Virus record (IMG/VR): IMGVR_UViG_2874945390_000011
DNA length: 42,488 bases
Source: a virus
Taxonomy: Duplodnaviria; Heunggongvirae; Uroviricota; Caudoviricetes
Strand: one strand, 5' to 3'
The translations under genes were made by a program, and so were the position numbers. This document shows, in pieces, positions 568-770 of this stretch. The notes below the pieces were generated by a model that saw nothing but the letters and a program-made list of their open reading frames with translations, had not been told where the DNA came from and searched no databases. Numbering within the stretch: position 1 is the stretch's first letter; every line of letters starts with the position of its first letter.

Positions 568-582
568 TTAGTATAAAAAAGC
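568..582. other. lambda-type attachment core (attR junction, reverse orientation)
   Basis: ttagtataaaaaagc is the exact reverse complement of the 15-bp lambda core GCTTTTTTATACTAA; left flank resembles the bacterial attB arm, right flank the phage P arm. Confidence 0.75.
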
Positions 583-725
583 TGAACGAGAAACAGTAAA
601 AATCATTAATATCAATGCATTATAATACATTTAGCTTAAAAAATAGACTGCATAATACTGCAAAACACAACATATCCAGTCACTATGAATCAACCACTTA
701 GATGGTATTAGTGACCTGATACAGA
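583..725. promoter_or_regulatory. attP P-arm-like region with Int arm-type site motifs
   Basis: Sequence after the core (tgaacgagaaac...cagtcactatgaatcaacc...tggtattagtgacctg) closely follows the recalled reverse complement of the lambda attP P arm, including a CAGTCACTAT arm-site motif. Confidence 0.55.
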
Positions 726-728
726 GCA

Positions 729-770
729 TTAGCGCAAGGTGATTTTTTGTCCTCTTGCGCTAATTTTTTG
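729..770 (+). terminator. hairpin plus T-tract (rho-independent terminator-like)
   Basis: Perfect 10-bp inverted repeat ttagcgcaag/cttgcgctaa with 15-nt loop followed by ttttttg. Confidence 0.4.

Follow-up and report, generated by a model that had tools for sequence, protein, structure and literature searches.

The stretch of viral DNA analysed here (42,488 nucleotides; Caudoviricetes, IMG/VR record IMGVR_UViG_2874945390_000011), which we call the window, begins with the host gene ybhB and an attachment site of phage lambda. Judging by sequence, we confirm that positions 568-730 are a true lambda-type attR (P-O-B') beside ybhB. We consider it highly likely that this attR is orphaned and stands at the end of a chimera, in which the attR-bearing end of one prophage (A) was fused to the body of a second prophage (B) by recombination in a repeat that both prophages shared. 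The best class for the feature is an orphaned, already-known lambda-type attR. Table 1 lists the coordinates.

Table 1 Features of the window, and the pgl-type att system that lies outside it
Feature	Position	Strand	Basis and remarks
ybhB (host gene), 3' end toward attB-lambda	1-477	+	158-aa ORF; so annotated in VL40, FDAARGOS_944 and K-12
Host B' arm of attB-lambda (ybhB-attB intergenic DNA)	478-567	-	K-12 attB B' identity, except position 564
15-bp lambda common core O, GCTTTTTTATACTAA	568-582	-	Exact, unique match
Lambda-type P arm	583-719	-	92% identity to lambda P arm
H2 IHF site	610-622	-	Diverged from lambda, still fits WATCAANNNNTTR
X2/F	634-653	-	3 mismatches vs lambda
X1	659-673	-	1 mismatch vs lambda
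P2 arm-type site	674-688	-	1 mismatch; exact consensus CAGTCACTAT at 677-686
H1 IHF site	684-706	-	1 mismatch; IHF consensus retained at 688-700
P1 arm-type site	705-719	-	1 mismatch vs lambda
sib/tI hairpin homologue + T-run	728-770	+	Alignment to lambda 27544-27578; differs by one inserted base, one substitution
Phage b region remnant, gene fragments upstream of ipaH	774-1056		To ~870 common to 434, ev099 and other lambda-att phages
ipaHa, T3SS effector E3 ubiquitin ligase (LRR + NEL domains), cargo adjoining attR	1057-2820	+	587-aa ORF; Pfam LRR_TTSS, NEL
2.4-kb segment common to A and B	2041-4430		ipaH 3' (NEL-coding) half, DUF4376 gene 3000-3623, tail-fibre 3' part
Tail-fibre gene	3574-4835	-	Frameshifted, 4-bp deletion near 3928-3935
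Prophage B body	4431-42488	-	99.4% identical to pgl-site prophage of FDAARGOS_944
Four phage tRNA genes, between Q region and lysis genes	28186-28496	-	ARAGORN
IS600, two inverted copies	29489-30752; 40396-41667		IS ORFs
IS630-family element	37504-38645		IS ORFs
pgl-type att system, outside window	L006 14072-14155; L023 13173-13478; L015 ~3084-3096		13-bp core TTCATGAAGCAAA over pgl start codon

The lambda-type attR and its flanks

Searching the window for the 15-bp lambda common core, we found a single copy, on the minus strand and with 0 mismatches. No second lambda core was present in the window at up to 2 mismatches (0.08 expected from shuffles). On the phage side, the reverse complement of 773-565 aligned to lambda (NC_001416) 27534-27741 with 189/206 identical positions (92%), and this identity broke off at the first base past the core. 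On the host side, the sequence from 567 down to ybhB was that of the K-12 attB B' arm except for a single substitution at 564. A four-way alignment of the window, K-12 attB, lambda attP and the FDAARGOS_944 attL showed P-like sequence left of the core and K-12 B'-like sequence right of it. The identity block is exactly 15 bp, which sets the phage/host boundary at 568-582. An earlier note on this DNA had described an exact core in reverse orientation, with bacterial sequence on the ybhB side and a lambda P arm with an arm-site motif on the other, and had placed the right end of a prophage at attB-lambda with its boundary at about 583. All of this was borne out: the alignment to lambda attP and E. 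coli attB, which it had proposed as a check, gave P to the left and B' to the right of the core, and the P-O-B' junction lies beside ybhB.

The predicted P-arm sites stand in lambda order, with two putative IHF consensus matches at 688-700 and 610-622. Lambda integrates by means of an Int tetramer, with IHF bending the DNA at H1, H2 and H' and with strand exchange in a 7-bp overlap. From established lambda knowledge, we take the overlap TTTATAC at 571-577 to be the location of strand exchange here. The substitution at 564 is a private G to T change in the B' core-type Int-binding site (CTTGAGCG to CTTTAGCG), and it was not found in VL40, FDAARGOS_944 or K-12.

Just past the P arm lies the homologue of the lambda sib/tI hairpin, with the hairpin itself at 728-763 and the T-run reaching 770, read in the direction of int transcription. 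RNA folding of 700-800 gave -30.2 kcal/mol (z = -3.4), and the matching segment of HK97 is annotated as the sib site. A simple terminator scan missed this hairpin, the loop and bulge of which fall outside the scan rules. We take lambda sib/tI to be the retroregulator and terminator of int transcripts. In the window the hairpin is orphaned, because no lambda int transcript reaches it.

The b region remnant that follows is annotated in relatives solely as partial 'hypothetical' and 'transposase' fragments, and a translated stretch, MMQWWADWLD (~830-860), presumably resembles the C-terminus of P4-type integrases. Relatives annotate the 1057-2820 gene as IpaHa. Full-length matches to the first 3 kb of the window were confined to a few EIEC/Shigella-type 'E. 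coli' genomes. Seven EIEC genomes match the ipaHa segment from window 633/636 on only and have it annotated beside a transposase; the P arm there appears truncated, apart from core and ybhB.

Compared with the lambda attR, the site has the same 15-bp core, host position and orientation, a P arm that is 92% identical, the same order of P1, H1, P2, X1, X2/F and H2, and sib/tI beyond them. It differs in the substitution at 564, in the diverged H2 and core-adjacent spacer, in its cargo (ipaH, where lambda has b-region genes) and in the absence of a cognate attL, int or xis from the element. The P-arm/sib segment is likewise 89-92% identical to those of 434, HK97, HK106, ev099, mEp332 and other phages annotated with a lambda-type attP, and several lambda-att phages share ~100 bp more with the window (to ~870) than lambda does. 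Unlike the element in the window, however, these phages are complete and carry a cognate lambda-type Int. Among the lambda-att phages of the phage collection, none has ipaH beside this attP or a contractile tail as found here.

An attR is recognised by its core, by a B' flank contiguous with the chromosome and by a set of P-arm sites, and at the level of sequence the window has all of these. It should also have a cognate attL (B-O-P') on the same prophage, which we found only in the intact relative FDAARGOS_944, and an Int and Xis of lambda specificity on the same element. The last were missing too, the Int that belongs to this prophage end having 45% identity to lambda Int.

The integrase end and its pgl-type att site

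Window 29998-42488 matches the Shigella-type chromosome CP026836.1 (locus L006) at 12491/12491 positions, and the exact 587-aa IpaH is recorded only in CP026836.1, at the coordinate expected from contiguity. Locus L006 therefore shows the DNA right of the window. It contains a DUF1187 gene, an excisionase gene (Exc) and an integrase gene, the product of which has a lambda-type arm-binding domain. The earlier note had looked for a second core and an integrase further right. The first expectation failed, as neither the window nor the 7.8 kb past its right end in CP026836.1 holds a second lambda core, an absence that the note had named as refuting its reading. The second held in part: an integrase is present past the window, but this resident 368-aa Int shares only 159/353 residues (45%) with lambda Int. 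No lambda P' arm or core was detected in the 3' flank of the resident int. The int end joins the host 10 nt into pgl, in the divergent ybhA-pgl region, and not at ybhC. We do not expect the resident Int to act on the core or the arm sites of lambda.

The resident int gave no megablast match in the phage collection, where the best tblastn matches were lambda-group integrases at ~45%. Megablast against complete E. coli genomes returned it from 2 genomes only, with no independent intact example of its prophage among them. In three Citrobacter-type contigs, an Int that is 78% identical to the resident Int has its ybhA junction at the same nucleotide; these prophages have a different early region (RecE/RecT) and a similar sequence past the int stop codon. 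A 13-bp block, TTCATGAAGCAAA, is common to the attL' of L006, the attR' of FDAARGOS_944 (L023) and the empty K-12 site. The same-nucleotide junction in Citrobacter and the shared 13-bp block mark the pgl junction as something other than the chance end of a deletion, and we conclude that the resident integrase is served by a separate att site, which overlaps the start codon of pgl. At the attR' of FDAARGOS_944, the prophage replaces the pgl upstream region. Neither the pgl-type core nor its flank turned up in a search of the window, which leaves the resident Int without its cognate attR'. In the published literature, we found nothing on a pgl att site.

The heptamer TTTCGAA occurs in two copies just past the int stop codon and in one inverted copy in the attR' arm, is partly conserved in Citrobacter and is absent from window 1-1100. 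From its distribution, it may be a candidate arm-type site of the resident Int. An integrase of Cronobacter that has 62% identity to the resident Int was tried as a guide to the pgl site and rejected, as it sits elsewhere (psp operon).

Tandem prophages in a relative and the proposed fusion

The chromosome of E. coli/Shigella FDAARGOS_944 (NZ_CP065613.1, 4.286-4.389 Mb) carries two tandem prophages, A and B, unfused and in the same orientation. The order is ybhA-attL'-prophage B-attR'-pgl-ybhD-ybhH-ybhI-ybhJ-ybhC-attL(lambda)-prophage A-attR(lambda)-ybhB. Prophage B encodes a 368/373-aa Int, early genes, lysis and head genes, a contractile-tail baseplate and sheath, a tail fibre, DUF4376 and ipaHb. 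Prophage A has int, xis, exo/bet/gam, kil, cIII, immunity, Q and lysis genes, followed by a lambda-like head, a siphovirus tail with gpJ and lom, a tail fibre, DUF4376 and ipaHa. The Int of prophage A is identical to lambda Int at 353/356 residues (99%), and its attL, a B-O-P' junction beside ybhC, departs very little from lambda in the P' arm and lacks one T in the core. Thus the lambda-type specificity that the earlier note had read from the core applies to the integrase that made the attR, as this Int and the attL by ybhC indicate, but not to the resident Int, which is 45% identical to lambda Int and sits at ybhA/pgl.

The FDAARGOS_944 attL (L023 22205-22225) has five T's in its core, not six (GCTTTTTATACTAA), and one change in the P'1 arm site (CAGGTCATTAT); we write the lambda attL core, with its optional T, as GCTTTTT(T)ATACTAAGTTGGCATTA. 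Either true decay or an error in sequencing the homopolymer could account for these changes.

Performing BLAST against a 114-kb FDAARGOS_944 stretch, we found that window 1-4440 corresponds to the end of prophage A (attR-ipaHa) with 98.9% identity and window 2038-29488 to prophage B with 99.4% identity. The match to prophage B runs on to the end of the window, broken by IS elements only. In a three-way alignment, the window tracks A exclusively up to 2040 and B exclusively from 4430. Between them, at 2041-4430, A and B are themselves 96-100% identical, and their two repeat copies lie 59,449 bp apart in FDAARGOS_944. Diagnostic sites inside this shared repeat are mosaic, being B-like at 2256-3870 and mostly A-like at 4089-4281. 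Therefore the crossover point cannot be narrowed inside 2041-4430, and gene conversion or more than one event possibly contributed to the mosaic. In FDAARGOS_944 the prophages are separate, each has its cognate ends and pgl-ybhC lie between them, whereas the window looks like the fused, deleted form, with the six host genes pgl-ybhC missing between the two ends of the element.

The body of the window comprises the contractile-tail baseplate, sheath and tape-measure genes, head and lysis genes, four tRNA genes, the Q region, replication and immunity genes, and a truncated early region. The tRNAs are Gly-TCC, Thr-TGT, Arg-TCT and one with a CAT anticodon, called Met by ARAGORN and Ile in the annotation of relatives. 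The tail module is not lambda-like, as the earlier note had correctly remarked, because the tail, like the rest of the body, belongs to the second prophage (B), here joined to the attR-ipaHa end. Signs of decay are evident. Taking both FDAARGOS_944 copies as reference, the tail-fibre gene has lost 4 bp in a short CAGT/CAGC repeat. Where the second IS600 stands, ~2.8 kb of the FDAARGOS_944 sequence is missing, with recE/gam as well as the 5' end of an AAA-ATPase gene.

The history that we propose builds on what the sites are shown to be, on an int end that is non-cognate, on a relative in the tandem state and on the A/shared/B mosaic. In it, Int would have recombined a lambda-type attP with E. 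coli attB-lambda (ybhC/ybhB) to yield the attR. The phage that made it was probably a lambda-like siphovirus in which ipaHa lay between attP and the tail-fibre genes. A second prophage, with an unrelated, contractile tail and ipaHb, would have lain ~9 kb away in the same orientation, inserted by its own lambda-family integrase at the 13-bp core overlapping the pgl start codon. Since A and B have the same orientation, homologous recombination between their direct 2.4-kb repeats would delete the DNA between, ~59 kb in all. The deletion would have taken out the body of the lambda-like prophage along with its int, xis and attL; the host genes ybhC-ybhJ-ybhI-ybhH-ybhD-pgl; and, from the second prophage, attR' and the 5' half of ipaHb. 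The product would be one chimeric prophage with non-cognate bounds, a lambda attR on the ybhB side and a pgl-type attL' on the ybhA side, which is precisely how the window is built.

Excision in lambda requires attL (B-O-P'), an Int of lambda specificity, Xis at X1/X2, IHF and Fis. With the attL, Int and Xis of lambda specificity gone and the attR' also lost, we expect the element to be excision-dead. The att site would then be a fossil junction of an element that is locked in and further decayed by IS600, IS630 and the tail-fibre frameshift. The tandem ancestor is observed in FDAARGOS_944, which is another strain and not the source lineage. From it we infer the direction of events, a deletion from a tandem ancestor, and the intervening DNA was presumably lost and not relocated, although pgl-ybhC and the lambda int could still have moved elsewhere in the source chromosome.

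The join falls exactly inside a near-identical repeat, as it also would if the tandem prophages were real and the assembler had collapsed the 2.4-kb repeat, dropping 59 kb. We regard such an artefact as improbable. CP026836.1 is a finished 5.1-Mb chromosome, and long reads as a rule bridge repeats of 2.4 kb. Moreover, an independent EIEC strain, VL40 (NZ_CM177011.1, 1.61-1.66 Mb), has the same attR-lambda/ipaHa end joined to a contractile-tail prophage.

The absence of pgl-ybhC between the two ends would equally follow if a single phage at attB-lambda had suffered a simple deletion from its P' arm through ybhC to pgl, with no second prophage involved. This is very unlikely, since the int-side junction lies at the same nucleotide as in the Citrobacter prophages and carries the 13-bp block that is repeated at the FDAARGOS_944 attR', the DNA downstream of int lacks a lambda P' arm, and the window from 4430 to its end is 99.4% identical to a separate pgl-site prophage.

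Slighter still is the chance that the element is one intact prophage at attB-lambda with an integrase of lambda specificity and a second core further right, even though the attR is authentic and an integrase and an excisionase do follow directly on its right. The integrase has 45% identity to lambda Int, adjoins ybhA/pgl and not ybhC, has neither a lambda core nor a P' arm beside it, and forms a junction that is a conserved att site of its own; furthermore, the window switches from A to B at 2041-4430. Finally, the idea that the core is a chance AT-rich 15-mer unrelated to site-specific recombination has nothing in its favour but the AT-richness of the region, and we dismiss it in view of the 0.08 matches expected even at 2 mismatches, the ~190 bp of flanking P-arm homology and the exact switch to B' at the core edges.

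Meaning of the orphaned end

Fusion of A and B by deletion, the reading that we prefer, may have a counterpart in VL40. The integrase end of the VL40 prophage (357-aa Int) abuts yfaA/gyrA, a locus far from ybhB in K-12, and this layout implies a prophage-mediated chromosomal rearrangement. It suggests that the same cassette mediated another rearrangement in that strain. Tentatively, and with somewhat more doubt than confidence, we raise the possibility that the ipaH 3'/DUF4376/tail-fibre cassette is a portable homology that repeatedly fuses or swaps prophage ends, accompanied by an apparently undescribed clade of lambda-family integrases with a pgl core. If so, cassette-driven fusion would account for the tandem deletion here and for the ybhB-yfaA/gyrA join in VL40, and ipaH effector genes would become locked into the chromosome behind non-cognate att sites. 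The pgl-clade integrase would target the 13-bp core over the pgl start codon and re-supply the pgl upstream region.

The element resembles the Shigella 'ipaH islands' in that its ipaH is chromosomal and borders a lambdoid prophage that is decayed and riddled with IS elements. Such islands, prophage-like and carrying ipaH, are cited as previously characterised (PMC4226921). Our search found no literature on the att sites or the chimeric origin of this island; it returned only a phage that integrates upstream of ybhC and a reference in general terms to ipaH islands.

As an att site, the junction is ordinary and of a kind already known, and the chimera is a modest curiosity. The lambda attP, attB and attR are among the best-understood recombination systems, and neither a new integration site nor recombination between prophages is out of the ordinary. 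What the case adds is a caution for annotation pipelines, which may call prophage boundaries or integrase specificity from a single att end: an exact lambda core with its P arm reveals neither the specificity of the linked integrase nor the unity of the prophage. At this fossil end, an ipaH effector gene would be stranded on the chromosome, with six host genes gone and excision not expected. In summary, the element would illustrate in concrete form how recombination between prophages fixes virulence cargo in Shigella genomes and erodes them.
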